Below are positions 4,877 through 55,424 of a stretch of DNA of 64,000 nt, piece after piece. The translations under genes and the position numbers were made by a program. This DNA comes from an uncultured virus (IMG/VR IMGVR_UViG_3300021091_000002). Its lineage: Duplodnaviria > Heunggongvirae > Uroviricota > Caudoviricetes. Under the pieces are notes generated by a model, which had not been told where the DNA came from, made no database searches, and saw only the letters and a list, made by a program, of their open reading frames with translations. Positions within the stretch are counted from its first letter, which is position 1; every line of letters begins with the position of its first letter. The stretch lies in IMG/VR virus record IMGVR_UViG_3300021091_000002; one strand, 5' to 3'.

Positions 4877-5251
4877 ATGGAATGGTTGGAAGATGCTCCT
4901 TGCCGCGGGTTGAACCCGGATATCTTCTTTCCCCCGCTTGACCAAACAAACCACAATGCATACTACAAAGCTGGAAAAGCCGTATGTCACACATGTGATG
5001 TGTGGGAAGAGTGCTTGAATTATGGTATGAACGAAACATGGGGATTGTGGGGTGGGTTGACTCCACAAGAGCGCAGAGGCACCGCAAGGCTTCACCACGG
5101 AGTTATCGAAATGTACCGTTTCGGCTGTCGGTGCCCAAAGTGTAGAGAGTGCTCTGTAACGGTAAGAAAAAAGATTCCAAAAGAAGTATTCCCTGCTAGA
5201 GGACAAGAATTCAACATAGAATCGTTGGTTTTCAAACTTTCCAGCATGTGA
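4877..5251 (+). CDS. whiB: WhiB-family transcription factor with C-terminal Cys-rich extension
   Basis: W..A.C..FFP..K.VC..C.V..EC..GLWGG.T..ER; extra HG..Y..GCRC..CR. Confidence 0.9.
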   Translation: MEWLEDAPCRGLNPDIFFPPLDQTNHNAYYKAGKAVCHTCDVWEECLNYGMNETWGLWGGLTPQERRGTARLHHGVIEMYRFGCRCPKCRECSVTVRKKIPKEVFPARGQEFNIESLVFKLSSM

Positions 5252-7860: not shown

Positions 7861-7906
7861 ACCCCGAGCGGACAACTACGGTGTGTAGTCGCCCGCTCGG
7901 GGTTTT
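7861..7906. terminator. probable bidirectional intrinsic terminator between convergent gene blocks
   Basis: ACCCCGAGCGG...CCGCTCGGGGT stem with A-rich 5' flank and T-rich 3' flank. Confidence 0.8.
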
Positions 7907-8626: not shown

Positions 8627-9250
8627 TTAAGTCCACACCGTGTCGTTGGGCATACTTGCAGAAGTGCACCGGCGACGAATCTTGTGACGAATCTTGTCTT
8701 TGTCTTGTAAGAGGTTCGACGGATCGTCAAATACAAGCGGGAACTTTTCAGCAATACGCCACAAAAGACCGGCGTCAGACATTCGTGCGATGTTTTTGTC
8801 CCAGTTGATCACTAACAAATCTGACTTTGGCGGGCATACCCCCCGCACATCATGTTCGGTCAACACACGATCTTCGTGCATTACGAAGACAAACAGGTCA
8901 ACACCCTTTCTATTGAGTATTGACCGTAACGAATAATACGAATTCGTTCCGACCATGACGACCTTATCAAATTCGTTAAAATCGTAGCTGTCCCCATTGA
9001 TGATTGCTATGAGGTCGGGCTCGGACCAGTCGTCCGAGTGTCGAACCAGGCCCGCTTGCCGACGCAATCGCCATTCCGGCAAAGACCGGAACGTCTCAAT
9101 CTTTTTTGGCAGGTCCCAGCAGCTAAGGAATTCGTGCGAATCAACGAAATGGACTAGCTTGTCGTTGTCTTTAACTAGCTGGCAGGCCAAAGCAAGGCCA
9201 AACGTCGAAGCTCCGACGCCACCTCCTGCTTGTGCAATTGCAATTTTCAT
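8627..9250 (-). CDS. degenerate ParA/MinD-like P-loop protein
   Basis: IAIAQAGGGVGASTFGLALA...VHFVD. Confidence 0.55.
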   Translation of the reverse strand: MKIAIAQAGGGVGASTFGLALACQLVKDNDKLVHFVDSHEFLSCWDLPKKIETFRSLPEWRLRRQAGLVRHSDDWSEPDLIAIINGDSYDFNEFDKVVMVGTNSYYSLRSILNRKGVDLFVFVMHEDRVLTEHDVRGVCPPKSDLLVINWDKNIARMSDAGLLWRIAEKFPLVFDDPSNLLQDKDKIRHKIRRRCTSASMPNDTVWT

Positions 9251-9272
9251 TTTAATTCTCCTTTTTCTCTTT

Positions 9273-9791
9273 TTAACCAAACATAATGTCGCCGTACATA
9301 GCGTACTGCCAGAACAGGTCCTGGCTTTCGCTGTCCACGTCGTCTTCTATTACGTCTTTAAGCAAAGTTTGAGCCCAAACTTGATCCACGGGCAAAGACT
9401 TTAAAACTTCGATAATGTCTGGAACACTGAAAGTTTTGGTTACTTCGAAACGGGAAACGTGCCCCAACTTGCTTATAGCACGCGCCTCAATCTGACGGAC
9501 GCGCTCGCGGGTGAGATTGAATTGCTTGCCCACTTCCTCGAGGGTGCGGGGTTCGCCCCGATCGAGGCCGAAGCGAAGTTTCATGATCTCGCGCTCGAAC
9601 TCGTCGAGAGTGTTTTCTGGGTCAACCATAGTAATAGTTATGAGGCCATCTTGTCTTTCAACGCGATTAACCCAACTATACCAAGCATTGCCGGTTAACA
9701 TGTCAAAAACTTCGTTTTCATCCAAAGTTAATGTTGTTGGCAACAACAGTGTAAACATGTGTTTTTTTGTTTTCATTTTCATTTGAGTCAC
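9273..9791 (-). CDS. phage protein carrying an internal sigma-70 region 4 HTH
   Basis: [50 protein letters not shown]. Confidence 0.85.
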
Positions 9792-10258
9792 ATCTCTTTC
9801 TGTAGTGTGTCTGGGTTGTAACCAATGTCGATTAGAAACTCTCTGAGTCTTTTTATCTCGGCATTGAGGGCATGGTACAGGTGCTGTCTTTCGATGTTTT
9901 CAATCAACGCCACCTTTTCTAAATGTTCTGGATTACAGCAAAGCGTGTTACGGCAAAGGTGATCCAGAGTTTCTGCTTTGGTCAAACTTACATGCTTATG
10001 CTGTTCATAAGACCATCTGTGTGCTTGATAGGCTTTGTTGCCTATGTACATTCGCCCGTATCCTTTGTCTACGGTGCCTGTCCATATCCAACACCCATCA
10101 TCTGTTTTTTTGATGTTCTTCCAGAACTTATCTTCTGGAAGCTTGGATTCTTCAATTACGTGCAGAACTCCATCACGCTTTAGTTGTTTGTAATGGGCTG
10201 CACATAATCCTTTTGCTACTACCGGTTTATTGCACACCGGCCCTCTACATAGCGCCAT
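9788..10258 (-). CDS. HNH endonuclease with N-terminal zinc finger
   Basis: CWIWTG..GYG..AHRWSY..LDHLCRN..CCNPEHL. Confidence 0.9.
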
Positions 10259-10305
10259 GCGTACTCCTTACATTTGACGTCATCACGATTGCGACGGGAG
10301 CTAGT

Positions 10306-10557
10306 CTACATGTTTGCTTTTTTTTTAGCTCGTCTTTGGCGTTCCTTTGTGCGTTCTCTTGGGCATAGACCACCAAATATTCCAAATCTGTCTACCTCTT
10401 GGTTGATATTCAGTGATTCTTCCAAGCATTCTGTTTTCACTTTGCACGAGTTGCATATCTTTTTTGCTGGGCGACTTGATTGTCCTCTTTCAATAAAAAA
10501 GATTTCAATAGGTTTTCCTCTGCAAGCAGCGTGCTCTAGCCAATTTGAATTTCTCAT
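10306..10557 (-). CDS. whiB: WhiB-family transcription factor
   Basis: WLEHAACRG..FF..AKKICNSCKVKTECLE..GIFGG..RER. Confidence 0.9.
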   Translation of the reverse strand: MRNSNWLEHAACRGKPIEIFFIERGQSSRPAKKICNSCKVKTECLEESLNINQEVDRFGIFGGLCPRERTKERQRRAKKKANM

Positions 10558-10558
10558 A

Positions 10559-10768
10559 CTATACCTCTACTTTGTACAACTTTTTGAAGTCTCGCCTCAT
10601 TGGGTGCAGCGATGATTCAGTTCCATGTGTAGAATATGTCGGTCCAGAAATGTTGGGTGGGGGTGTAATTTTGTACACCCCACCCTTGTTCCTAGTAATG
10701 GAAAACCCAAGATCCTTAAGTTTCCTAAACATTTTCTTCACAGCTTTTGATTGATGTTGTGTGACCAT
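10559..10768 (-). CDS. HicA-like (dsRBD-fold) small basic protein
   Basis: KKMFRKLKDLGFSITRNKGGVYKITPP pattern; the usual catalytic GxH is absent. Confidence 0.45.
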   Translation of the reverse strand: MVTQHQSKAVKKMFRKLKDLGFSITRNKGGVYKITPPPNISGPTYSTHGTESSLHPMRRDFKKLYKVEV

Positions 10769-16687: not shown

Positions 16688-17968
16688 TCATTCTGGTGCC
16701 AGAGGGTGCTCCACGTCGGGCACGGCGGGTTCTTCAGGCTGAGGCTCAAACTCAGCACGAAGCATGTCTTCGATGCCACGGTCCTTGATGATTTCGGATA
16801 CCACGATCTTCTCGTTTTGAGAGACGAACTGTCCCATGAACGCCCACAAGCTGAAGTCAACTCCAAGATGAACCAAGTCGCCTTCAAGCAACTGCAACGA
16901 TTTGGTACCGATTGGAGTGGTTATACTACGTTGTGCGCGAGCGTTACGCAATGCCTGACCAAGCAAACGTATAGCAGGAGACTTGATCAGTTTCTTTTCC
17001 ACTTCTTCATCGTAATTCCATTCCAACAACTTGAAGCGGTTGGCAAAGGCTTCGTTCGTCTTGGACATGCCAGCATAACCGGGATTCCATGAGGAAAGAA
17101 TCCACAAGTTTTTGTTGGCATGTACGATTTCGGGACGGAACGAACCCTCATGGGTTTCCACTCCAGTAACCGGATCGGTGAACACTCGTCCGTCCCACAC
17201 CGGCTTGCGGATGTTGACGAACTGGTGACGGTTGTCTAGCAACGGGTGGATCGCAGCGGTAACAGCACCGCTCATTGCGTTCACCTCGTCAAGGTACAAG
17301 ATACCGCCGATACGTACCGCTAAGGCAACAATGCCCTCCATCCACACCAACTGCTCCTGACCATTGGCAACCACTGGTCGGTACTGGCCAAAGAGGTCAT
17401 GGTCGGTGATTGCTGACGAACCGGCAAGAGTAAAAACCGGTAACGGTTTGCTAAGTCCCAACTGCTGTGCCACCTTGAATGCCATAACTTGAGTTAAGTA
17501 TGTCTTACCTGACTGAGTGTCGCCCACTAGGGCGATAGACACCGGATACCCGTCGTTCTCGTCACGACGATTGAAGTATTTCATCATCACGTCGATATCG
17601 GTGAGGTTTCCTGCAAGAGTACGGGATACGTAGTTCTTGGGGTCGATGTTCGGTCGGAACGGATCGAGCGCCGGATCATCCAACGACTCGATTCGCAGGT
17701 TGCTGACTATCACCGCGTGCTGGTGCTGAGGGACATTGGACGCGGCGGCGTTTGGGACGTTGGAACGTCCCAAGATAACAATGCCTTTGGGCAGTATCTC
17801 AACGACGCCCAGCATAGGCTCATCGAACGTCACTTCGATTTTGCTGCCGGGGCCACCAGGCACCAACGTTGCTCGGGTGATTGTTCCTTCGGCATTCTTG
17901 AACGGCGGGTACTTACCCATCACTCTCATGCCTTCTTTTAATTCTTTGGTACTTGCCATTCTTACCAT
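16688..17968 (-). CDS. MoxR/CbbQ/CobS-like AAA+ ATPase
   Basis: GDTQSGKT, LYLDEVN, NPGYAG...NEAFANRF. Confidence 0.88.
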   Translation of the reverse strand: MVRMASTKELKEGMRVMGKYPPFKNAEGTITRATLVPGGPGSKIEVTFDEPMLGVVEILPKGIVILGRSNVPNAAASNVPQHQHAVIVSNLRIESLDDPALDPFRPNIDPKNYVSRTLAGNLTDIDVMMKYFNRRDENDGYPVSIALVGDTQSGKTYLTQVMAFKVAQQLGLSKPLPVFTLAGSSAITDHDLFGQYRPVVANGQEQLVWMEGIVALAVRIGGILYLDEVNAMSGAVTAAIHPLLDNRHQFVNIRKPVWDGRVFTDPVTGVETHEGSFRPEIVHANKNLWILSSWNPGYAGMSKTNEAFANRFKLLEWNYDEEVEKKLIKSPAIRLLGQALRNARAQRSITTPIGTKSLQLLEGDLVHLGVDFSLWAFMGQFVSQNEKIVVSEIIKDRGIEDMLRAEFEPQPEEPAVPDVEHPLAPE

Positions 17969-18528: not shown

Positions 18529-18936
18529 TCATTGATCTCTCCGAACCGCGTTCTCGAACTCTTCTTTGAGTTTGAGCCAATCAAACACCCAATCGGGGCA
18601 GTCGGTCGTGTCGCCGTTCTCGTCAACCGGTCCCTGAACGACCACGGTTCCAACAAGACGGTCGCCAGCCTCAACGCAACCGTACTCATCAACAGCAGCC
18701 CAAAGCTCAGTCGCCGTTTTGTTGAACGGCAGCCCGAGCAACTTGCCTTCCTCATTACACCAAATCGTCAGCGAGGTGTCGCTGTCGGCAGAGGCGGCCC
18801 AGTAGTCCGGTTTGACGGGCACAAGTTCAATCAATCCGCCAATTGCGTTGCTCAACGGCTCGTAGCCATCCAGTGTTTCTGGCTCAATTGACTCAAAGCC
18901 TTCGTCACTCACTCGTATCACGATTGATCTCGTCAT
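18529..18936 (-). CDS. DUF3846-family protein
   Basis: IGGLIE..WCNEEGKLLGLPFN..AT..LVGTVVV.G. Confidence 0.8.
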   Translation of the reverse strand: MTRSIVIRVSDEGFESIEPETLDGYEPLSNAIGGLIELVPVKPDYWAASADSDTSLTIWCNEEGKLLGLPFNKTATELWAAVDEYGCVEAGDRLVGTVVVQGPVDENGDTTDCPDWVFDWLKLKEEFENAVRRDQ

Positions 18937-18937
18937 T

Positions 18938-19189
18938 TCATTCCTTCCCTTCCTGTGGTTCAGGAGGATTGATTGGGTGGCGCATATCAAAACGATCTAT
19001 TTTGCGCAATTCTGATGCTTTTCGCATCAGCCAGTTCCGGGTTCCACGACGGGTAAGTCCGTCGTAGGACCAACATTGGTGCCACTGAGACTTTATACCA
19101 GTAACATCCACTGTTCTCATATACAGGCGTCCTCGGTGTCGAAACGCGCGTATTTTTACTACGCTGTGCTTGTATTGATTAGCTTTCAT
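18938..19189 (-). CDS. basic hypothetical protein
   Basis: MKANQY start after GGGAG. Confidence 0.55.
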   Translation of the reverse strand: MKANQYKHSVVKIRAFRHRGRLYMRTVDVTGIKSQWHQCWSYDGLTRRGTRNWLMRKASELRKIDRFDMRHPINPPEPQEGKE

Positions 19190-20839: not shown

Positions 20840-20841
20840 AG

Positions 20842-20914
20842 TGCATCAGGAAGGGGTCGAACCTACAACCTACAGATTAGAAATCTGTTGCTCTATCCAT
20901 TGAGCTACTGATGC
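20842..20914 (-). tRNA. tRNA-Arg (anticodon UCU), CCA not encoded
   Basis: GCATCAG/CTGATGC acceptor, D arm GCTC..GAGC, anticodon arm ACAGA-TTTCTAA-TCTGT, T loop TTCGACC. Confidence 0.93.
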
Positions 20915-21772: not shown

Positions 21773-21873
21773 AGCATAGACCCATACATAGGCACAAGTT
21801 GTGACATTTGTCACATGATAGTGACAAGTGCCACATGGTGAGACATTTGTCACATGGTGAGACATTTGTCACA
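21773..21873 (-). promoter_or_regulatory. promoter with four tandem CRP-like boxes and -10 TATGCT
   Basis: TGTGAcatttgTCACA 21800-15, AGTGAcaagtgCCACA 21820-35, TGAGAcatttgTCACA 21839-54 and 21858-73. Confidence 0.7.
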
Positions 21874-22000
21874 CTAGGCACCTCGTACTGGACGTCGCAC
21901 CGTTTGCGACGCAAACCGGTCCAACCAGACGCAGGGAGCAGAGATGCCCCTCACACTAGGCTGGGTATGGCAGGGCAGATTTCTCAGCCGGATTTCGGGC

Positions 22001-22036
22001 AAAGAAGAAAGCCCCCCACCCTTGCGGGCGGGGGGC
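22001..22036 (-). terminator. intrinsic terminator after the 183-aa gene
   Basis: GCCCCCCGCCC-GCAA-GGGTGGGGGGC followed by TTTCTTCTTT on the minus strand. Confidence 0.9.
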
Positions 22037-22053
22037 AATCTCCCTGGGGGGGG

Positions 22054-22605
22054 TCAGAGGCTCTTGGAGAGAGCCACGACCAACGCTACCAGTTGCTGCT
22101 GAGCAACTGTCCGCTGATCGGCGGGTGTGGTCACCAATGCCAACTGGCAGGCTGCGAGTTGGCTGGTGGCACGCTCTGTGGCTATCCGCACTTCACGCTG
22201 TGCGGGGGTCTCTCCGTTGTTGGATTGACCCTCGGTCAGCCGTGCCCACGCTGCGTTCTGGTCTTGTGCCCCTGCGAGCAACGCCCTCAGAACGTCCGCG
22301 GACTTCTTGGAAGCCAAGAGCCGGTTCCAAACCGTCTGCCCCGCTTTCGCGGAGCCGACCGCCGGAAGGCTGAAGAAGAGTCCCCAAACGATGAGGATTC
22401 CCTCCCAGCCCGCGGGTAGCGTGTTGGCGGTGTACGCCTTAGCGATGACGTCCCCGATTTCCCTGCGGATTTCGGTCTCCTTGAGAGCCGCAATAGCGGG
22501 GGCGGAGGGACGCAAGTCGTCCCACGCTGCTTTCGCGGTTGCCTTGGAGTTGGACGCTGTGGCATCTGCCAAGAGCGTTTGCCTGACTGTGTCTAACACC
22601 GACAT
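22054..22605 (-). CDS. Ala-rich helical hypothetical protein in a GC-rich segment
   Basis: SD AAGGAG, followed by its own terminator. Confidence 0.8.
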   Translation of the reverse strand: MSVLDTVRQTLLADATASNSKATAKAAWDDLRPSAPAIAALKETEIRREIGDVIAKAYTANTLPAGWEGILIVWGLFFSLPAVGSAKAGQTVWNRLLASKKSADVLRALLAGAQDQNAAWARLTEGQSNNGETPAQREVRIATERATSQLAACQLALVTTPADQRTVAQQQLVALVVALSKSL

Positions 22606-29236: not shown

Positions 29237-29310
29237 GCCGGATGGTGCGTCCGGTTGACGCAAGGTGTCTTATAAACACCCGTAGACGGGTTCAACTCCC
29301 GTATCCGGCA
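29237..29310 (+). tRNA. tRNA-Ile (anticodon UAU), CCA not encoded
   Basis: GCCGGAT/ATCCGGC acceptor, anticodon arm GGTGT-CTTATAA-ACACC, T arm ACGGG-TTCAACT-CCCGT. Confidence 0.85.
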
Positions 29311-29327
29311 CTGTTATAATTGATAAC

Positions 29328-36869: not shown

Positions 36870-37038
36870 AGCCCTAATTGCATCCTACGCTCGTAGCGTT
36901 CTTGGCGCAGGTGTAGCTACTTACACCGCTACCCAGGACTGGAAGCTAACCCTAAACGCTCTTTGGGCCGCTGCCATTCCAGTTGTAATGCGCTTCATCA
37001 ACCCCAAGGACGCTGCCTTTGGCAAGGGGGCCGAGTGA
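36847..37038 (+). CDS. holin
   Basis: two TM segments, NPKD..FG motif, directly upstream of the endolysin; SD AGGAGG. Confidence 0.7.
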   Translation: MFLTKQNKALIASYARSVLGAGVATYTATQDWKLTLNALWAAAIPVVMRFINPKDAAFGKGAE

Positions 37039-37850
37039 TTTACCCCTACATTAAACTGGTACTTCCCTCAGCCCTAGCAAACCACAAGAACGGCCAGCTC
37101 CCCCAAGAGCTGCTTGCCAAGGTGAAAACTGGTGGGTTGATGTACAAACCTGCCGCTGAGCAGTTCAATAAGATGTACGATGCAGCTCTTGCTGCCGGTC
37201 ACAAGCTCAAGAACGTCGGTGACTACCGCTCGTTCCAGGGTCAGCTGAACATGTTCATGGACCGGTACACCACTACTGACCAGGGACGTAAGCCCCAGGT
37301 TACCCGCCAGTACGAAGGCAAGACCTGGTACCTCAAGCCCGGTAAGGCTCCCAGCGCTGCACCAGATCCCACTGGTAAGAAGGGTTCCAACCACGGTTGG
37401 GGCCTTGCCATTGACCTTGGTTACGAGGCTGGTGGCAAGCTTCAGTCCATGGGCGGAGCTTGCTTTGAGTGGATGTGCGCCAACGCCCCTAAGTGGGGTT
37501 TCTACCTTCAGACTGGTGACAAGAACTCCAAGGAGTTTGAGTCCTGGCACTGGCAGTACTGTCTTGGTGATAAGACCCCAGACGGCTCTGTAGCAGCTCC
37601 AGTAGAGGCTCTAGTACCTTCTGGTGGTTCTCCAGAGGCGGGCCCCATGAAGTTTGACTATCCTGGCACCCCAATCAAACGTGGCTCTAAGGGCCCAGCT
37701 GCCGCTCTTGTACAGGCCATTATTGGTGCTACCCCTGACGGGGACTTTGGCCCCCGCTCAGAACAGTCTCTAAAGGCATGGCAGACCGCTAACGGCCTAA
37801 AAGTAGACGGTGTAGTCGGGCCTGTAACATGGAAGAAGATGTTTGGCTGA
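37035..37850 (+). CDS. endolysin: M15-family Zn peptidase plus PG_binding_1 domain
   Basis: YRS..Q, SNHGWGLAID, ESWHW; DGDFGP...WQ..NGL.VDGVVGP.TW. Confidence 0.9.
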   Translation: MIYPYIKLVLPSALANHKNGQLPQELLAKVKTGGLMYKPAAEQFNKMYDAALAAGHKLKNVGDYRSFQGQLNMFMDRYTTTDQGRKPQVTRQYEGKTWYLKPGKAPSAAPDPTGKKGSNHGWGLAIDLGYEAGGKLQSMGGACFEWMCANAPKWGFYLQTGDKNSKEFESWHWQYCLGDKTPDGSVAAPVEALVPSGGSPEAGPMKFDYPGTPIKRGSKGPAAALVQAIIGATPDGDFGPRSEQSLKAWQTANGLKVDGVVGPVTWKKMFG

Positions 37851-41941: not shown

Positions 41942-43501
41942 ATGCAGCAAGTGGCAGAAGAGGGGTCAATACCAGAAGACATTGAAGCTCTTGAGCTTGA
42001 TGAAACATCTCAAGAGTTTATTGACCAACTTGTTATGAAATTAATCTTATTTACAGAAGAATTTTGTAACGTAACTTTCTTCCCGTACCAAATACCGATT
42101 GCTTATAGGATGATCGAGTCAATAGTTATTGGAGATGGTGAAGAAATAACACTAATTGCTACTCGTCAATCAGGTAAATCTGAAGTTCTATCAAATGTCC
42201 TTGCGTCTATGATGGTGATTCTTCCAAAATTGTCCAAGGTCTACCCAACATGGTTGGGTAAGTTTGAAAGGGGGTTTTGGTGTGGAGTGTTCGCGCCCGT
42301 TGAGGACCAGGCTGACACGGTGTTCAGTCGTATTGTTAGTAAACTCACTAGTGACCACGCACTGGATTTTCTCCTTGATCCTGAGATTGACGACAAAGCC
42401 ACATCCGGAGGATCTAGAGGAAAAGGACGAATAATAAGTCTTAAGCATTCTGGGTCTTTTTGTCGTATGCAGACCTGTAACCCTAAAGCAAAGATTGAAT
42501 CTAAAACGTATCACTTTGTTCTAGTAGATGAGGCCCAAGAGGCTGACGAGTTCATGATAACCAAGTCAATAAAGCCAATGTTGGCGTTCAACAACGGAAG
42601 TATTGCGCTTACTGGCACCGCAACCCGTAATAAATCTTATTTTTACAAAATGATACAATTCAATAGACGACGGGATGTTAACTCCCGTCGTAACCACCGT
42701 CAGTGTCACTTTGAGTACGATTGGAAAACAGCCGCAAAGTATAATGACAACTATGCAAAATTCATATCTAAAGAAAAAATAAGAATTGGAGAAGATTCGG
42801 ACGAGTTTCAGATGTCCTACTGCAATAAATGGATTCTTGAAAAAGGAATGTTTGTTTCAGATGAGCGTCTATCACGCATGTACGACCAGTCAATGGGCCT
42901 CGTAAAGCAGTGGTGGAGAACTCCGGTTGTTGTTGGTATTGACGTAGCTAGATCAAACGACTCTACTGTAGTGACAGTCTGTTGGGTTGATTGGGATCAC
43001 CCTGACGGATTTGGGTTCTACGAACACCGAGTCCTAAACTGGTTGGAGATTAATAATGAAGAATGGGAATCCCAGTATTTTGAGATTATTGACTTTCTTC
43101 GCAATTATAATGTGTACAGAATTGGTGTTGATGCCCAAGGTGTTGGCGGTGCTGTAGCAGAGAGGTTGCAAATTTTGCTTCCAAAAATTGAGGTCCTTTC
43201 TGTCACCTCAGACGCCAAAAACCAAAACGAACGTTGGGTTCATCTGACTGAACTTATACAACGTGACCAACTCATTATCCCTGGCCACTCAAAAGCACGA
43301 CGTACACGATCATGGAAACGCTTTAATCAACAAATGTCAGACCTAGAGAAAGTATACCGAGGGCCCTATTTATTAGCCTCAGCACCAGACGAAAAGGGAG
43401 CTTTTGACGACTATCCAGATTCCTTGGCTATCGCATGCGCCATGTCTGTGGCTGACACCATGCCAATGGTGACCGTATCCGAGAGTCCGTTTTTCAGATA
43501 A
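41942..43501 (+). CDS. terL: terminase large subunit
   Basis: YQ, TRQSGKS, LVDEAQ, LTGT, GIDVARSNDST, DDYPDS. Confidence 0.93.
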   Translation: MQQVAEEGSIPEDIEALELDETSQEFIDQLVMKLILFTEEFCNVTFFPYQIPIAYRMIESIVIGDGEEITLIATRQSGKSEVLSNVLASMMVILPKLSKVYPTWLGKFERGFWCGVFAPVEDQADTVFSRIVSKLTSDHALDFLLDPEIDDKATSGGSRGKGRIISLKHSGSFCRMQTCNPKAKIESKTYHFVLVDEAQEADEFMITKSIKPMLAFNNGSIALTGTATRNKSYFYKMIQFNRRRDVNSRRNHRQCHFEYDWKTAAKYNDNYAKFISKEKIRIGEDSDEFQMSYCNKWILEKGMFVSDERLSRMYDQSMGLVKQWWRTPVVVGIDVARSNDSTVVTVCWVDWDHPDGFGFYEHRVLNWLEINNEEWESQYFEIIDFLRNYNVYRIGVDAQGVGGAVAERLQILLPKIEVLSVTSDAKNQNERWVHLTELIQRDQLIIPGHSKARRTRSWKRFNQQMSDLEKVYRGPYLLASAPDEKGAFDDYPDSLAIACAMSVADTMPMVTVSESPFFR

Positions 43502-43560: not shown

Positions 43561-43962
43561 ATGGCTGTAGCCCCCGCCCCAATGTTCCCAGAAAAAGGTG
43601 AACCACAATTTGAGAGAGCGCTTGCTCCCAGCATTCCCATGAACCGTGGTCCACTCCGCTTTGAGGAAGGCGTAGCAACTGACACCGACGTTCCCATGGA
43701 CTTTAGCATTGGCGCCTACCAGGACACCGCCCCTTCGCCAATGCGGGTGAACCATAACAACCCCGAGATGTTTTACAAGTACCCTGAGGAGACCATGCGT
43801 GAGCGTGCCCACGTTGGCTCAGCTACCTGGATTGAAGCCCCTGACCACCTCCAAGAGTTCGTTATGGGTTCAATGGCAGGCGACGGCATGCCTCAGTTTG
43901 AGTACTCCTATAACACAGGTGGGCACATGAATCTGCCCAACAAGACGGTTGTTTCTGGCTGA
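43561..43962 (+). CDS. hypothetical protein (head-region gene)
   Basis: SD AGGAGG; GPLRFEEGVATDTDVP. Confidence 0.7.
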   Translation: MAVAPAPMFPEKGEPQFERALAPSIPMNRGPLRFEEGVATDTDVPMDFSIGAYQDTAPSPMRVNHNNPEMFYKYPEETMRERAHVGSATWIEAPDHLQEFVMGSMAGDGMPQFEYSYNTGGHMNLPNKTVVSG

Positions 43963-45450: not shown

Positions 45451-45787
45451 AAAATCTAAAAAACCAGCTATTCCAAAGCTTGTTTTAATTACATGGCTTG
45501 ACGCCTTTGATGGCCCTACTGGGTGGGTGGACCCCGCAGAGTACAAGCCCCACCCAGTTCGCCCAATCTCAGTTGGTTGGGTAGTAGAAGATTTTTTAAA
45601 AGACCACATTACGTTAATTGGCACATGGTTAGCAGACCGTAACGAGTTAGGTAACAAGACTTATTACAGCAATCCTGCTCATATCCCGTTAGGGATGATA
45701 CAATCAATAACATACATTGACGTTCCGAGTTCTATAGAACAACTAATCATTAATGATTTAAACACCAGGGGATTTAATGCCGATTGA
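45428..45787 (+). CDS. conserved phage hypothetical protein
   Basis: LVLITWLDA..GW..SVGW..IP.GMI. Confidence 0.65.
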   Translation: MHKTKKSKKSKKPAIPKLVLITWLDAFDGPTGWVDPAEYKPHPVRPISVGWVVEDFLKDHITLIGTWLADRNELGNKTYYSNPAHIPLGMIQSITYIDVPSSIEQLIINDLNTRGFNAD

Positions 45788-47471
45788 TTTCTGGTCACCA
45801 AGTTACAGAGCTTCTTCTAGTGATTTAACTGTTGCAATATCCCCGCTGGGTCTAGTTGAACTTGCTGATGAAGAGTTTGAAGTGCATGGACCTAGGCTAA
45901 ACCGCTATAGCGCATGTTGGGCATGGTACCTTGGTCACCACTGGTCGTATCGTCGTGAGCAGGGCGAACAGAACATCACACTAAATTACGCTAGAACTTT
46001 TGCCGATTACATTACAAACTTTTGTTTTGGTAAGGGCGTACAATGGAAAGTTCCAGAACAGAACGCTGCAATTATCCCTCACCTACTACACAAAGTTTGG
46101 GAAGTAGACAACTCTAAGCACAACGTTTTATGGGAAATGGGGCAGCTTGCCGGAGTAACAGGGGACTGCTTTGTCAAAGTTGCTTACGAAGACCCATTTA
46201 TTGACCCTCTAGGTATCACGGTTGAGGGGCGAATCAGAGTAATACCATTAAACCCCGCTCACTGCTTCCCTGAATACCACCCACATGATCGTGATCGTCT
46301 TCTGAGATTTAAGCTCAAATACCGATTCTGGGGGACTTCACCAGAAGGTACACGGCAGGTATACACATTTACTGAAATCCTTACTGATGACAGTATCGAA
46401 CAATATATCAATGATGAACTAGTGGATCAGTACCCTAACCCGATTGGCCGTGTGCCAGTAGTGCATATTCCAAATATAACTATCACGTCGTCACCTTGGG
46501 GTCAATCTGACATTTGGGACATAATCCCACTTAACCGCGAACTAAACGAAAAGATGACCGAAATATCGGACATAATTAACTATCATGCTGCTCCCGTGAC
46601 AATCATCATTGGTGCTAAGGCAAGCCAGCTAGAGCGTGGACCAAAGAAGGTTTGGGCTGGGTTGCCAAAGGATGCGTCAGTTACAAACCTAGAGTCACGT
46701 GGTGACATGGCTGGAGCTCTTCAATACATTCAGTTCCTAAAGCGTGTTATGCACGAAATAACTGGAGTACCGGAGACCGCACTTGGCCAGTTCCAACCAG
46801 TGTCTAACACTTCTGGTGTAGCTTTGTCAATTCAATATCAGCCGTTGATGAATCGCTACAACATGAAGAGAATACATTTTACAAAAGGTCTGGAAAAGAT
46901 TAACGAAATAATCATCCGAACTGCTGCAATTTTCCAACCTGAGCTTCTTATTTACGACCCCTCTAAGGCCGAAGCGCCGGAGGGTGATCAATTGCCACAA
47001 CTTGACCCAGCCGACCCTTTGACCTACAAAACTCAAGTACACTGGCCAGAACCACTCCCAGTTGATGTTCTTATTAAACTTAACGAAGCTCAGGCAAAGA
47101 TGGCGATGGGGCTTGAGTCCAAAGAAGGCGCTATGCGTATGTTGGGTGAAGAGTTCCCACGTGAAAAACTTGCTGAGATATTTGAAGAATTGCGAGATGA
47201 TGCTGTTGATCAAGGAGCGCTTGACATGCTTCGCGCACAGATCAACCAAGCGGTCATGCTCGCCACAGGCTTGCTACCCGGCCCCGAAGGTACCAGCACG
47301 GTACCCGCTGGAGGTGCTAATGTAACAAGTGCAGGTTCTCCTGCCCAACCTGGAGGCCCCTTACCGGGAACCCAGGCGACAGGCGGTCCTGTAGAAGGAA
47401 TGGTAAACAATATAGTTGCAAAGGCATACGGAGCTAGGTTTGCCCAGCGCCGTGTTCCTGACGAAGAATAA
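45777..47471 (+). CDS. portal protein (SPP1 gp6-like)
   Basis: NPIGRVPVVHIPN..WGQSDI, NTSGVAL; lies between terminase and scaffold. Confidence 0.88.
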   Translation: MPIDFWSPSYRASSSDLTVAISPLGLVELADEEFEVHGPRLNRYSACWAWYLGHHWSYRREQGEQNITLNYARTFADYITNFCFGKGVQWKVPEQNAAIIPHLLHKVWEVDNSKHNVLWEMGQLAGVTGDCFVKVAYEDPFIDPLGITVEGRIRVIPLNPAHCFPEYHPHDRDRLLRFKLKYRFWGTSPEGTRQVYTFTEILTDDSIEQYINDELVDQYPNPIGRVPVVHIPNITITSSPWGQSDIWDIIPLNRELNEKMTEISDIINYHAAPVTIIIGAKASQLERGPKKVWAGLPKDASVTNLESRGDMAGALQYIQFLKRVMHEITGVPETALGQFQPVSNTSGVALSIQYQPLMNRYNMKRIHFTKGLEKINEIIIRTAAIFQPELLIYDPSKAEAPEGDQLPQLDPADPLTYKTQVHWPEPLPVDVLIKLNEAQAKMAMGLESKEGAMRMLGEEFPREKLAEIFEELRDDAVDQGALDMLRAQINQAVMLATGLLPGPEGTSTVPAGGANVTSAGSPAQPGGPLPGTQATGGPVEGMVNNIVAKAYGARFAQRRVPDEE

Positions 47472-48330: not shown

Positions 48331-49437
48331 ATGGCATTACCCGCACCCGCAGGTGGAGCAATTACAGGTACAGCTACCGGTTCAGTGACCGGTTATACTG
48401 ACGGTAGTTCCGCTCTATCTCCCGCAATCCAGCAAATTTGGTCAAAGGAAATCCTTTTCCAGGCCATGCCCGTACTTCGGTTTGAACAGTTCGCTGTTAA
48501 GAAGACCGAACTCGGTGTCATGCCCGGTTTGACCATCAACTTTATGCGTTACAACAACCTGTCAGTTGATGAGTCAGCAGGAGCAACCCTTAGCGAAGGT
48601 ACCCGTATGGAGCCCGTCGCTTTGTCCGCAAGCCAGATTCAGATCACCGTTACCGAACATGGTAAGGCTGTCGCCGTCACCGAGCTGCTTCTCAATGCAG
48701 CTTTTGATGACGTTATGGCATCAGCTTCGCGCCTACTTGGTCGCCACATGGCTCAGAGCATGGACATCCAGGCTCGCAACACCCTCTACAAGAACGGTGT
48801 ACCGTTCGGTGGTGGAGCAGCTGTACCTCCAAGCGTTGTGTTTGGTCGTACCGCTGTTGCAGCCCGTGGCTCAATCAGCCCCTACGACGGCGGTGACGTT
48901 GGTACCGCTTCTGCCCCCGGTTTCCTCAGCCCCGCGTCCATCAAGGACGCAGTTGAGGTTCTCGCCGGCCAGAACATCCCCCGTTTGGGCGACACTTATG
49001 TCTGCTTCGTACACCCAAGTCAGAGCCGCTCACTCCGTGACTGGCCTGAGTTCATCGAAGTCACCAAGTACGCTGCCCCCGGCAACTTCATGCTTGGTGA
49101 AATCGGTCGTCTGTACGACGTAGTTTTCATTGAAACCACTCAGGTTAAGAAGGGTCTGGATGCCACTGCTGCTACCTCCCCTCTGTTCGGATTGGGATCA
49201 ACTTTAGACACCAGCGCTAGCGCTGGCTTCCAGGAAAACCCCAACTCTTTTAACGCCATTATGATCGGTGACAACGCTTTCGGTCACGCAATCAGCCTCC
49301 CGGTTGAGCTTCGTGACGGTGGTGTCATTGACTTCGGTCGTGAGCATGGTCTTGCCTGGTACGCCATTTGGGGATTCGGTGTAATCACCCACGAAAGCCG
49401 AGTAATTCTAAACACATTCGGTGGCGCAATTTCCTGA
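48331..49437 (+). CDS. major capsid protein (N4 gp56-like, HK97 fold)
   Basis: G.TINFMRY, LSEG, YVCFVHP, GEIGRLYDVVFIET, DFGRE..LAWY. Confidence 0.9.
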   Translation: MALPAPAGGAITGTATGSVTGYTDGSSALSPAIQQIWSKEILFQAMPVLRFEQFAVKKTELGVMPGLTINFMRYNNLSVDESAGATLSEGTRMEPVALSASQIQITVTEHGKAVAVTELLLNAAFDDVMASASRLLGRHMAQSMDIQARNTLYKNGVPFGGGAAVPPSVVFGRTAVAARGSISPYDGGDVGTASAPGFLSPASIKDAVEVLAGQNIPRLGDTYVCFVHPSQSRSLRDWPEFIEVTKYAAPGNFMLGEIGRLYDVVFIETTQVKKGLDATAATSPLFGLGSTLDTSASAGFQENPNSFNAIMIGDNAFGHAISLPVELRDGGVIDFGREHGLAWYAIWGFGVITHESRVILNTFGGAIS

Positions 49438-53903: not shown

Positions 53904-55424
53904 ATGCCTGAATATAAGAATCCAGGAGTATACGTATCCGAATCGGCATTCTTGCCGAAGGTGCGTAGAGGAGTAACCTCAAGATCAGCGGCTGCCTTCT
54001 TTGGTGAAGCACCTCGAGGACCCTCAGCCGCAACCCTAGTGCAGTCATGGTCTGAGTACAAGACACTATATGGTGATCTTTCACAGACCTCTGATCTTGG
54101 ATTTGCTGTTTACCATTACTTTGCAAACGGTGGTAGAGACGCATGGATCACCAGAGTTATTGGTAGCACTGCTGTAACCGCAACAGCCACAGTTGCCTAC
54201 TATCCCAATGGTTCTGGTCAAGCATCAGCCTCGTTGTTTACTGCTTCTGCAAAGAGCAAGGGTTCTTGGGGTAACAACCTTACCCTTGAATTCTCAAACG
54301 GAAATACCGCAGCCTCGTCAACGGTTATGCCTACATTTAACTTGGTAGTTAAGTTGAGTGGTATAGAAGTAGAGAGATGGAATGATCTGTCTCCAGACAT
54401 CGCTAGTAGTCGGTACTTTGTTACTATCCTTAATAACTACTCAAGCTACATCACAAACGTTGCCGCTGGTTCAGGAATTGTAGCCAACGCTTACTGGATA
54501 TATAACTCAGTAGCAACCACGTTTGCAAGTGGTTCAAACGGAAGCGCAGTGCAGGATACCGACTACGTGACGGCCCTTGGCCAGCTTGATTCAGTAGAGG
54601 GTGTGTTACTACTTAACGCCGTTAATAAAACTTCAGCAACTGTTATTAACCAGTTCCTTGCAAAGGCAGAATCCCGAGGAAACTCCTTTGTGATTATCGA
54701 CCCAGACATGACCGCTGTTGATGTGTCTACCATTGGTGGTTCAGTAGTAGGAAGCTACACTAGTTCAAACTACGGAGCTGTGTACTACCCACATCTAACC
54801 ATGGTTGACCCCTCTAAGACTGGACCGGGAGCAGTTAGGGCAACTGCACCAGGTGGTGCAATCGCTGGAGTGTATGTTCGCACCGAGATTGAGCGCAACG
54901 TAGCTAAGAGCCCAGCTGGGTACAACGTTACTGTTCGTAACTCACTGGGCCTTGGTACTTCATTTACCGAAGCTCAAACAGGTACGCTTTACTCAACCTA
55001 CAACGTTAACGTATTGAAGACTGTTCCTGGTGGTGGAATCATTATCAATGGAGCTCGCACTCTAGACAAGGCAGCTCCTGGTAAGTTCATCTCTGCACGT
55101 AGAACTTTAAACTACTTGAAACAAGTTCTTAAAGAAGGTACTGAGTCTGCTGTGTTTGAGCCAAACGACTCTCGACTTTGGGACCAGATTACTGGGTCTG
55201 TCTCTGCACTACTTGGGGAGTTCTGGCGCCAAGGTGGTCTTAAGGGCAAGAATGCTTCAGAGGCTTACTACGTAATTTGTGATGCGTCAAACAACACGTC
55301 TGTAACCGTTGATAATGGTGAAGTACATATCGAGGTTGGTGTTGCCCTGCAATATCCAGCCGAATTTGTGGTAATAAACCTGTCCCAATGGACCGGTGGT
55401 TCAAACGCAACAGAGACACTCTGA
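53904..55424 (+). CDS. contractile tail sheath protein
   Basis: PGVYVSE, YFANGG, G.WGN, YYP, KSPAG, GARTL, VFEPND, PAEFV. Confidence 0.95.
   Translation: MPEYKNPGVYVSESAFLPKVRRGVTSRSAAAFFGEAPRGPSAATLVQSWSEYKTLYGDLSQTSDLGFAVYHYFANGGRDAWITRVIGSTAVTATATVAYYPNGSGQASASLFTASAKSKGSWGNNLTLEFSNGNTAASSTVMPTFNLVVKLSGIEVERWNDLSPDIASSRYFVTILNNYSSYITNVAAGSGIVANAYWIYNSVATTFASGSNGSAVQDTDYVTALGQLDSVEGVLLLNAVNKTSATVINQFLAKAESRGNSFVIIDPDMTAVDVSTIGGSVVGSYTSSNYGAVYYPHLTMVDPSKTGPGAVRATAPGGAIAGVYVRTEIERNVAKSPAGYNVTVRNSLGLGTSFTEAQTGTLYSTYNVNVLKTVPGGGIIINGARTLDKAAPGKFISARRTLNYLKQVLKEGTESAVFEPNDSRLWDQITGSVSALLGEFWRQGGLKGKNASEAYYVICDASNNTSVTVDNGEVHIEVGVALQYPAEFVVINLSQWTGGSNATETL

Follow-up and report, generated by a model that had tools for sequence, protein, structure and literature searches.

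We found that a small protein of an uncultured lake phage carries, inserted in frame, a piece of a bacterial housekeeping sigma factor. The protein is encoded by a 172-aa open reading frame (the fusion ORF; 9273..9791, minus strand, GTG start at 9791) in the window analysed here, a 64,000-nucleotide stretch from IMG/VR record IMGVR_UViG_3300021091_000002. A 150-nt segment of this ORF (50 codons; 9459..9608, minus strand) is host-derived region 4 of a primary (rpoD/sigA-type) sigma factor, as identified by Pfam, DNA identity and BLAST edges. It is a true insertion in a variable surface loop of a conserved phage protein of ~110 aa, and its origin from the 3′ end of an Acidimicrobiia-type primary sigma gene is established. 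The captured domain is the part of a sigma factor that recognises promoters and onto which regulators dock. The capture and the class of the donor are settled; as a decoy, the domain would have a plausible but putative role.

Known phage takeovers of transcription rely on proteins that bind sigma region 4 or the beta flap, on whole phage-encoded sigma factors, or on WhiB-like regulators. An inserted near copy of the host housekeeping region 4 would reach this control point by another route. That phage takeover genes can contain host-derived parts is already known, but a single-domain capture from a host as clean as this one is rare, and a full-text search of the open-access literature found no phage protein carrying a captured host region 4.

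Results

The insert encodes amino acids 62–111 of the fusion ORF. The donor segment begins where the second helix of region 4.1 begins, spans the helix-turn-helix of region 4.2 and ends at the His that follows the recognition helix, which is the His of the bacterial Arg-His-Pro motif. A first-pass annotation of this DNA had proposed that these 50 codons match region 4 of primary sigma factors. Indeed, the residues are the exact translation of 9608..9459, and Pfam family PF04545 (Sigma70_r4) matched amino acids 61–109 with an E-value of 1.7e-16 and 59.9 bits (gathering cut-off 24.1), over profile positions 4–48 of 50. PF04545 was the sole Pfam family found in the fusion protein; because region 2 (PF04542) is absent from its 172 amino acids, the fusion protein does not qualify as a sigma factor. 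It belongs both to the Sigma70_r4 domain family and to the ~110-aa phage protein family. Sequence comparison also bore out that the fusion ORF has His-Val where bacterial genes read His-Pro. The junction codons Val-Ser-Arg (9450..9458, minus strand) could be aligned neither to the bacterial gene nor to insert-less relatives, and inspection of the sequence revealed no convincing microhomology at either insert junction. Alternative starts of the fusion ORF are ATG codons 4, 6 and 12, the start in relatives falling at about codon 8–12.

The GC content was 0.60–0.63 across 9460–9609 and 0.30–0.44 in most flanking windows (90-nt windows). The codons of the insert are more often G/C-ending than those of the flanks, in line with the first-pass annotation: GC3 was 0.76 in the 50 codons and 0.736 in the 53 extra codons of the ORF, versus 0.36 in the N-terminal and 0.517 in the C-terminal flank. 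Just 41 of 15,416 53-codon windows in the 78 called genes (mean 0.417, sd 0.105) reached a GC3 of 0.736 or more; since these 41 include patches in five or six other genes, the GC3 of the insert is extreme but not unique. Other 53-codon stretches with a GC3 of 0.70–0.79 lie in the genes at 36963–37850, 16688–17968, 21808–22419, 48331–49437, 18529–18990 and 43561–43962, and the GC3-rich genes include a VanY/PG_binding endolysin-like gene and an AAA_5 ATPase gene. The GC3-rich stretches of other genes gave no DNA match in the sampled bacterial genomes at E<=1e-8.

The two flanks of the insert together make up the base phage protein. Its N-terminal half (amino acids 12–61; 9609..9758, minus strand) forms a helix and a beta hairpin (alignments A1–A3; AF2), and its C-terminal half (amino acids 115–172; 9276..9449, minus strand) a third strand and three helices (alignments, AF2), and contains the acidic motif ...Q-Y-A-x-F/Y-G conserved in the family. 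A search of 5.8 billion proteins returned the identical fusion protein (P0001, from codon 4) on 11 contigs, the longest of 93 kb, as well as a 112-aa protein without a Pfam domain (P0002), which aligned to both flanks with 63–64% identity and lacked amino acids 62–114. In IMG/VR we found four contigs (L004–L007) of a syntenic relative that has a 112-aa insert-less version of the gene; the flanks are 60% identical to the L004 protein. This relative and the window have in common a 200-aa ORF, a 69-aa ORF and genes for WhiB, HNH, glycosylase, deaminase and glycosyltransferase, and DNA alignment with L004 and L007 left a single clean 159-nt extra block in the window. A further locus, L008, is the window's own phage, and its fusion ORF is identical.

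A profile of the flanks alone, run against 1.84 billion representative proteins, gave 17 matches at E<=0.001, of which 14 were 99–127 aa long and three were left out (a 40-aa fragment and weak hits of 282 and 1,473 aa). To the question whether homologs of the flanks lack the insert, the answer was uniform: it is absent from all 13 aligned distant representatives and, with P0002 and L004–L007 counted, from 16 of 16 other aligned family members, syntenic relatives included. Both halves of the base protein align over their full length with the family, including the invariant Trp and the acidic D..D....D...Q motif; W29, D140, D142, D147 and Q151 are invariant in 17 of 17 sequences of alignment A3. 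The insertion point is the most length-variable loop of the family in the same alignment. The flanks, which the first-pass annotation had called unrelated phage segments, thus both belong to a separate, sigma-free phage family (P0002, P0121–P0136), whose fold and C-terminal motif the fusion protein shares, being the only member with the 53-residue insert.

No Pfam assignment was obtained for the base family at E<=1 across 17 members. In a named phage collection, tblastn matched 31 records, all limited to the sigma-4 part, and blastn with 4 kb gave zero matches. Of the distant members whose loci were sought, P0122 yielded none. At L099, the locus of P0123, the family gene lies among small unknown genes, with an HNH gene ~2.5 kb downstream and a homolog of the 69-aa ORF; no WhiB was seen there within the 6.3 kb examined.

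In the AF2 model of the fusion protein (pLDDT 89.1, pTM 0.69; insert blocks pLDDT 84–93), the insert is predicted as three helices, placed between the second and third strands of the base fold, which consists of a helix, three strands and three helices; the model of the insert-less P0121 had a pLDDT of 91.7 and a pTM of 0.81. Foldseek, with E-values of only 2e-3 to 5e-2 for the whole fusion model, placed the insert helices on solved sigma-4 structures (1ku7_D, rmsd 1.1 Å over 52 columns; 3n97_D, 1.0 Å over 49) and also superposed the insert on sigma-A4 in the WhiB1, WhiB3, WhiB6 and WhiB7 complexes. For the base fold, the best Foldseek E-value against the PDB was 0.16, and the best Z among 48,161 chains (VIA-align) was 3.9, with many uninformative E2-like rows at Z ~3. 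The ESM Atlas returned viral hypothetical clusters only, and BFVD only uncharacterized phage proteins, some of them of Microbacterium, Gordonia and Burkholderia phages; these look-alikes include an uncharacterized protein of Microbacterium phage Squash.

Because contigs of public runs showed bacterial fragments sharing exact words with the insert, we scanned metagenome contigs with the 30-mer 9549–9578. Four loci were found. L095 and L096 are the phage, identical over 211 nt, and L097 and L098 are bacterial, with a primary-sigma-type ORF of at least 315 aa ending 11 residues past the Arg-His-Pro motif. L098 is a 200,237-nt bacterial contig with a GC content of 0.637. The comparison with bacterial rpoD proposed at first pass gave a clear result: the insert matched the 3′ end of the L098 primary-sigma gene at 136 of 150 nt (90.7%), with edges exactly at 9459 and 9608, and identity in the adjoining 30 nt on each side (5/30 and 8/30) was at chance level. 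Taken with the insert-less homologs of the flanks, this sharp-edged rpoD identity upholds the claim of a host-derived capture in a phage protein. Among the species representatives L098 has no close genome, its rpoD being about 84% identical to the best of them.

We also searched for relatives of the insert with a pattern-based protein scan (one genome per species), in which, among the matches listed, the 19 best were 79–85% identical to the insert and the next tier at most 68%. By their titles, 12 of the 19 best listed matches are Acidimicrobiia, Acidimicrobiales, Ilumatobacter(aceae) or Microthrixaceae, the last three of which we take to lie within class Acidimicrobiia; four are titled 'Actinomycetes bacterium' (one tagged acIV), two are unnamed bacteria, and one is 'Candidatus Aldehydirespirator'. 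At the species-representative loci of the listed protein matches, DNA identity was at most 125/159 (78.6%). When 9430–9630 was compared by BLAST with 401 genomes, the set being defined by the class of G006 (the genome behind L011), 192 genomes matched at E<=1e-10, the best with 85% over 150 nt, and in these 192 the alignment always began at 9608 and stopped by 9459. Two genomes of this class, G218 and G281, are unpublished, and no conclusion rests on them. A search with 60 kb of the window against 101–151 genomes of the class (E<=1e-8, best two candidates per genome scored) gave matches only at 9459–9610 and at the tRNA-Arg gene 20841–20914.

The suggestion that the insert may identify the host held in part. 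The donor is of the Acidimicrobiia type and its allele abounds in the runs in which the phage occurs, which gives this uncultured lake phage a host lead; Acidimicrobiia-type bacteria are, however, only a possible host lineage. One captured fragment shows past contact, not the present host, and the 18-point gap in GC between the phage (0.46) and L098 (0.64) is a caveat for host assignment. The phage tRNAs read the A-ending codons AGA and AUA, which are expected to be rare in a GC-rich host. They are a tRNA-Arg(TCT) at 20841–20914 (minus strand) and a tRNA-Ile(TAT) at 29237–29311 (plus strand); the former is 92–94% identical over 52–60 nt to loci in ~21 genomes of ~1 Mb in the class searched.

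Compared with L098, the insert has 14 nucleotide differences in 11 codons, which result in seven amino acid replacements (Arg4Phe, Leu9Met, Glu28Lys, His29Gln, Ile37Val, Met45Ile and Arg49Gly in insert numbering); the Val following the insert's His is beyond the homology edge. The insert contains no stops and no indels. Many donor-class genomes share an identical 53-residue sequence despite 20–30% DNA divergence, which makes the phage lineage the most likely place for all seven replacements. The Nei-Gojobori method gave Sd 6, Nd 8, dS 0.20 and dN 0.073, a ratio of 0.37 (binomial P 0.08 versus neutrality). With seven replacements and a dN/dS of ~0.37 that is not significantly below neutrality, constraint on the insert is much weaker than in the host; these figures fit neutrality and a new, narrower constraint alike, and cannot separate the two. 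In ten of the 14 nucleotide changes G/C has given way to A/T, a bias that drift towards the composition of the phage would produce. The capture, described at first pass as recent, is so in a relative sense only, given the 14 differences (dS ~0.2) and a nearest species-representative genome at 85%.

A single replacement, Ile to Val, falls in the otherwise retained recognition helix T-R-E-R-x-R-Q-I-E; three of the seven replacements conservatively exchange one hydrophobic residue for another. Beside the retained His, the Arg before it has become Gly and the Pro after it Val, a pattern compatible with altered specificity as well as with decay. The insert lacks the first region-4 helix and the C-terminal tail. 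A stretch of 51 nt in a row (9528–9578) is identical to L098, all 14 differences falling in the remaining 99 nt. Such a change-free core is mildly unusual (P 0.03 for a uniform spread, 0.13 for synonymous sites only). Chance may account for it, as may strong constraint or later gene conversion with the host gene; more speculatively, recombination with host rpoD during infection could still be refreshing the phage copy.

We considered whether the insert might exist in no single molecule, phage and bacterial reads having been joined at shared words during assembly. One contig does have such a structure: X12 record 9 leads from the phage C-terminal flank through the insert into the bacterial sequence upstream in rpoD, switching inside the shared 51-nt stretch 9528–9578. 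The contig's mean depth of 33 is consistent with phage at ~3.7 joined to a bacterial tail of high depth, and we read it as a graph chimera at the shared 51-mer in that assembly and as a warning for assembling the locus. For the insert itself, however, an assembly chimera is highly improbable and is largely refuted by coverage across the junctions, a check the first-pass annotation had named. Region 9000–10300 is present in 20 lake or freshwater metagenome runs from 18 coded studies; 11 of these runs are possible sources of the window itself, none of the 20 is listed as RNA data, and four runs were examined contig by contig. Contigs of several public runs bridge both junctions with 0 differences, at 9459 in X1 record 1 (9000–9578) and X13 record 17 (9000–9513), and at 9608 in X1 record 7 (9549–10300) and X15 record 27 (9549–10005). 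These contigs show phage-specific letters where phage and bacterium differ, and so tie phage-specific insert alleles to each flank. The same sequence came from four independent collections (G001, L008, L095 and L096), 14 positions set the insert apart from the bacterial allele that abounds in the runs with the phage, and the insert-less relatives hold no sigma-like sequence to seed entry and exit of such a join.

That contigs end within the insert is explained by the bacterial allele, which occurs at high depth in these runs too (depth 137 in X1 record 8, and 57 and 68 in X15 records 24 and 28). The bacterial-allele contigs have 4 and 5 differing letters, just as many as the L098 allele has in those spans. 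The phage with the insert was unchanged in the 20 runs (studies dated 2018 and 2021), and the chimeric gene is shown to be intact and fixed in the sampled phage population. The stretch 9528–9578 makes de Bruijn assemblies branch.

The window belongs to a tailed phage, with a large terminase (41942–43501), portal (45777–47471), tail sheath (53904–55424) and tape measure protein; its overall GC content is 0.461, and its nearest record is G001 (68.6 kb, 74% complete). On the minus strand, the order of genes around the fusion ORF is 69-aa ORF, WhiB, HNH-like gene, fusion ORF, 217-aa ORF, 77-aa ORF and pyrimidine-dimer glycosylase. The WhiB-like protein (10306..10557, minus strand; 83 aa, four Cys) matched PF02467 with an E-value of 6.7e-17 (alignment A6), and its gene sits upstream, 698 nt from 9608, in agreement with the earlier claim of a phage WhiB ~0.7 kb away. 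A terminator-like hairpin (7861..7903, minus strand) with a 19-bp stem followed by a T run, identified by consensus scan only, closes the minus-strand string of WhiB, HNH, fusion and pyrimidine-dimer glycosylase genes. The same consensus scan found no strong terminator between the WhiB and fusion genes, and the fusion gene probably shares a transcription unit with the phage WhiB gene.

A second WhiB-like protein of 124 aa is encoded elsewhere in the window (4877..5251, plus strand). At its C-terminus it is longer by ~50 residues, including an additional Cys-rich stretch that the 83-aa WhiB lacks. A complex prediction for the fusion protein (A3), the 83-aa WhiB (A6) and a 4Fe-4S cluster gave a score of 0.01 and a mark of 0.32, values that speak neither for nor against binding.

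The HNH/His-Me endonuclease-like gene (9788..10258, minus strand) matched PF05551 and PF13392, both below cut-off, and its stop overlaps the start of the fusion ORF. It has near-identical copies in L004 (3115–3585) and L008 and a homolog in L099 (6114–6332); it is far more conserved in L004 than the adjoining genes and stands beside a different gene in L099, a distant phage, a distribution expected for a mobile homing-type gene. The 69-aa ORF (10559–10768, minus strand), which immediately precedes WhiB, had no Pfam match; it has conserved counterparts in L004, L008 and L099 (5824–6090). The 217-aa ORF (8627–9280, minus strand) directly downstream of the fusion gene matched neither Pfam nor PHROG; its glycine-rich N-terminus resembles, by eye, a degenerate ParA/MinD Walker A, it contains a second GC-rich patch (GC 0.63 at 9010–9099), and in L004 its place is taken by an unrelated 91-aa ORF.

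Discussion

Like sigma-A4 of Actinomycetota, the insert has a three-helix helix-turn-helix, the recognition-helix residues and the His, at 79–85% identity among the listed Acidimicrobiia-type proteins. Unlike a primary sigma factor, it consists of 50 residues without regions 1–3, the first region-4 helix or the C-terminal tail, lies within the loop of a phage protein unrelated to sigma factors, and has the Arg and Pro beside the His replaced.

We consider the chances about even that the grafted domain is a working sigma-4 mimic engaging WhiB-like proteins, −35 DNA or the beta flap. The domain encoded by the 150-nt rpoD segment in the loop of the phage protein would then be displayed by the phage scaffold and would compete with sigma-A region 4 of the host holoenzyme for its binders. 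This might draw transcription away from the sigma-A promoters of the host or set the time at which the phage WhiBs act.

WhiB-like (Wbl) Fe–S regulators, either the two of the phage or the 6–8 encoded by each donor-type genome, are a possible though doubtful partner, which would dock through the retained His. CRP-type activators, also named at first pass, would be conjectural candidates. All Wbl proteins studied, three phage ones included, bind sigma-A4 at His516-Pro517 (PMC6954389, PMC10245118, bioRxiv 10.1101/2025.06.05.653497); H516A, H516F and P517A (the last in M. tuberculosis, PMC6954389) abolish binding of WhiB1, and R515H weakens binding of WhiB3 by two-hybrid but not by pull-down (PMC6954389, PMC10245118, bioRxiv 10.1101/2025.06.05.653497). 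In the insert, the His equivalent to H516 by comparison with the bacterial Arg-His-Pro motif is kept as the last host-derived codon, and the Pro equivalent to P517 is not kept, Val being found instead. Host partners for a sigma-4 mimic exist, since five of five donor-type genomes encode 6–8 Wbl matches each, to which the phage adds two. The base fold occurs in Burkholderia phages too, and the scaffold is therefore not tied to WhiB biology. Since the DNA-reading helix is intact, binding of −35-type DNA is equally conceivable, if rather unlikely when taken singly. The beta-flap tip of RNA polymerase is an improbable partner, and the least likely, because the first region-4 helix, which contact with the flap needs, was not captured.

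As a narrower and tentative proposal, the sigma-A region 4 graft may serve as a decoy or adaptor for WhiB-like regulators, soaking up host Wbl proteins or timing the phage WhiBs away from RNA polymerase. Indirectly, the recognition helix and the His needed by Wbl proteins, both retained, and the two phage Wbl genes, one of them 0.7 kb upstream, would count for a mimic; the changed P517 equivalent, the changed Arg before the His, the missing first helix and tail, and the seven of 50 residues that differ from a segment invariant in the donor class would count against it.

The same changes suit a serious rival, to which we assign a considerable probability, though short of even: that the insert is a tolerated passenger. 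A stray piece of host rpoD would have landed in frame in a permissive loop by illegitimate recombination, perhaps during break repair, and, self-folding and harmless, would be in slow decay with loss of GC. No other part of the family varies as much in length as this loop (A3), the event is singular and left the first sigma-4 helix behind, and constraint is relaxed, with seven amino acid changes against none among donor-class genomes, a dN/dS of 0.37 not significantly below 1, and 10 of 14 nucleotide changes from G/C to A/T, towards phage composition. Moreover, the changed Arg and Pro beside the His are partner contacts according to PMC6954389 and PMC10245118. Against a mere passenger speaks, on the other hand, that the segment starts exactly at a helix start and stops right after the recognition helix, that it is free of stops and indels with conservative core replacements and an intact DNA-reading helix and His, and that it is seen unchanged with its phage in 20 runs from 18 coded studies. 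These points fit neutrality too, and none excludes it.

Split and minimal sigma factors exist in other phages, and the region-4 module might likewise work with a separate phage region-2 protein as a phage-specific sigma factor. We regard this as very unlikely: six-frame translation of G001 (68.6 kb) gave no Sigma70_r2 (PF04542) match at E<=0.1, a result that stops short of proving absence as G001 is only 74% complete; other sigma domains were absent from 59 window ORFs by Pfam; and the insert nearly duplicates region 4 of the housekeeping sigma of the host, unlike a diverged phage sigma.

If the domain does act as a mimic, its control point would be the same as that of T4 AsiA/MotA, P23-45 gp39, phage G1 ORF67 and Xp10 P7. 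These proteins are sigma-4 or flap binders without relationship to sigma, whereas the fusion protein contains a copy of sigma-4 (PMC6755090, PMC3950348, PMC5053324; 4g6d). Actinophage WhiB-like proteins, which bind sigma-A4 via His516, are like the insert in being host-type transcription parts at the same interface (bioRxiv 10.1101/2025.06.05.653497); the phage described here differs in carrying the other side of that interface plus two WhiB genes. If it does serve as a decoy or adaptor, the protein would be the first case of a virus encoding a mimic of a sigma factor domain: an 'anti-activator' made from the docking site of activators. Should the insert bind Wbl proteins, it would offer a natural tool for probing the Wbl–sigma interface.

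The locus is also a clean case for the origin of a protein, with the recipient family, permissive loop, donor gene, base-level junctions and later changes all visible. The capture event is unique: among 2.9 million viral contigs we found no second Acidimicrobiia-type region 4, the best of 409 relatives reaching 63%. We note a 162-aa protein on a 2.5-kb public contig (P0003) that is a stand-alone tandem of two region-4 copies, the second of which is near the Acidimicrobiia type.
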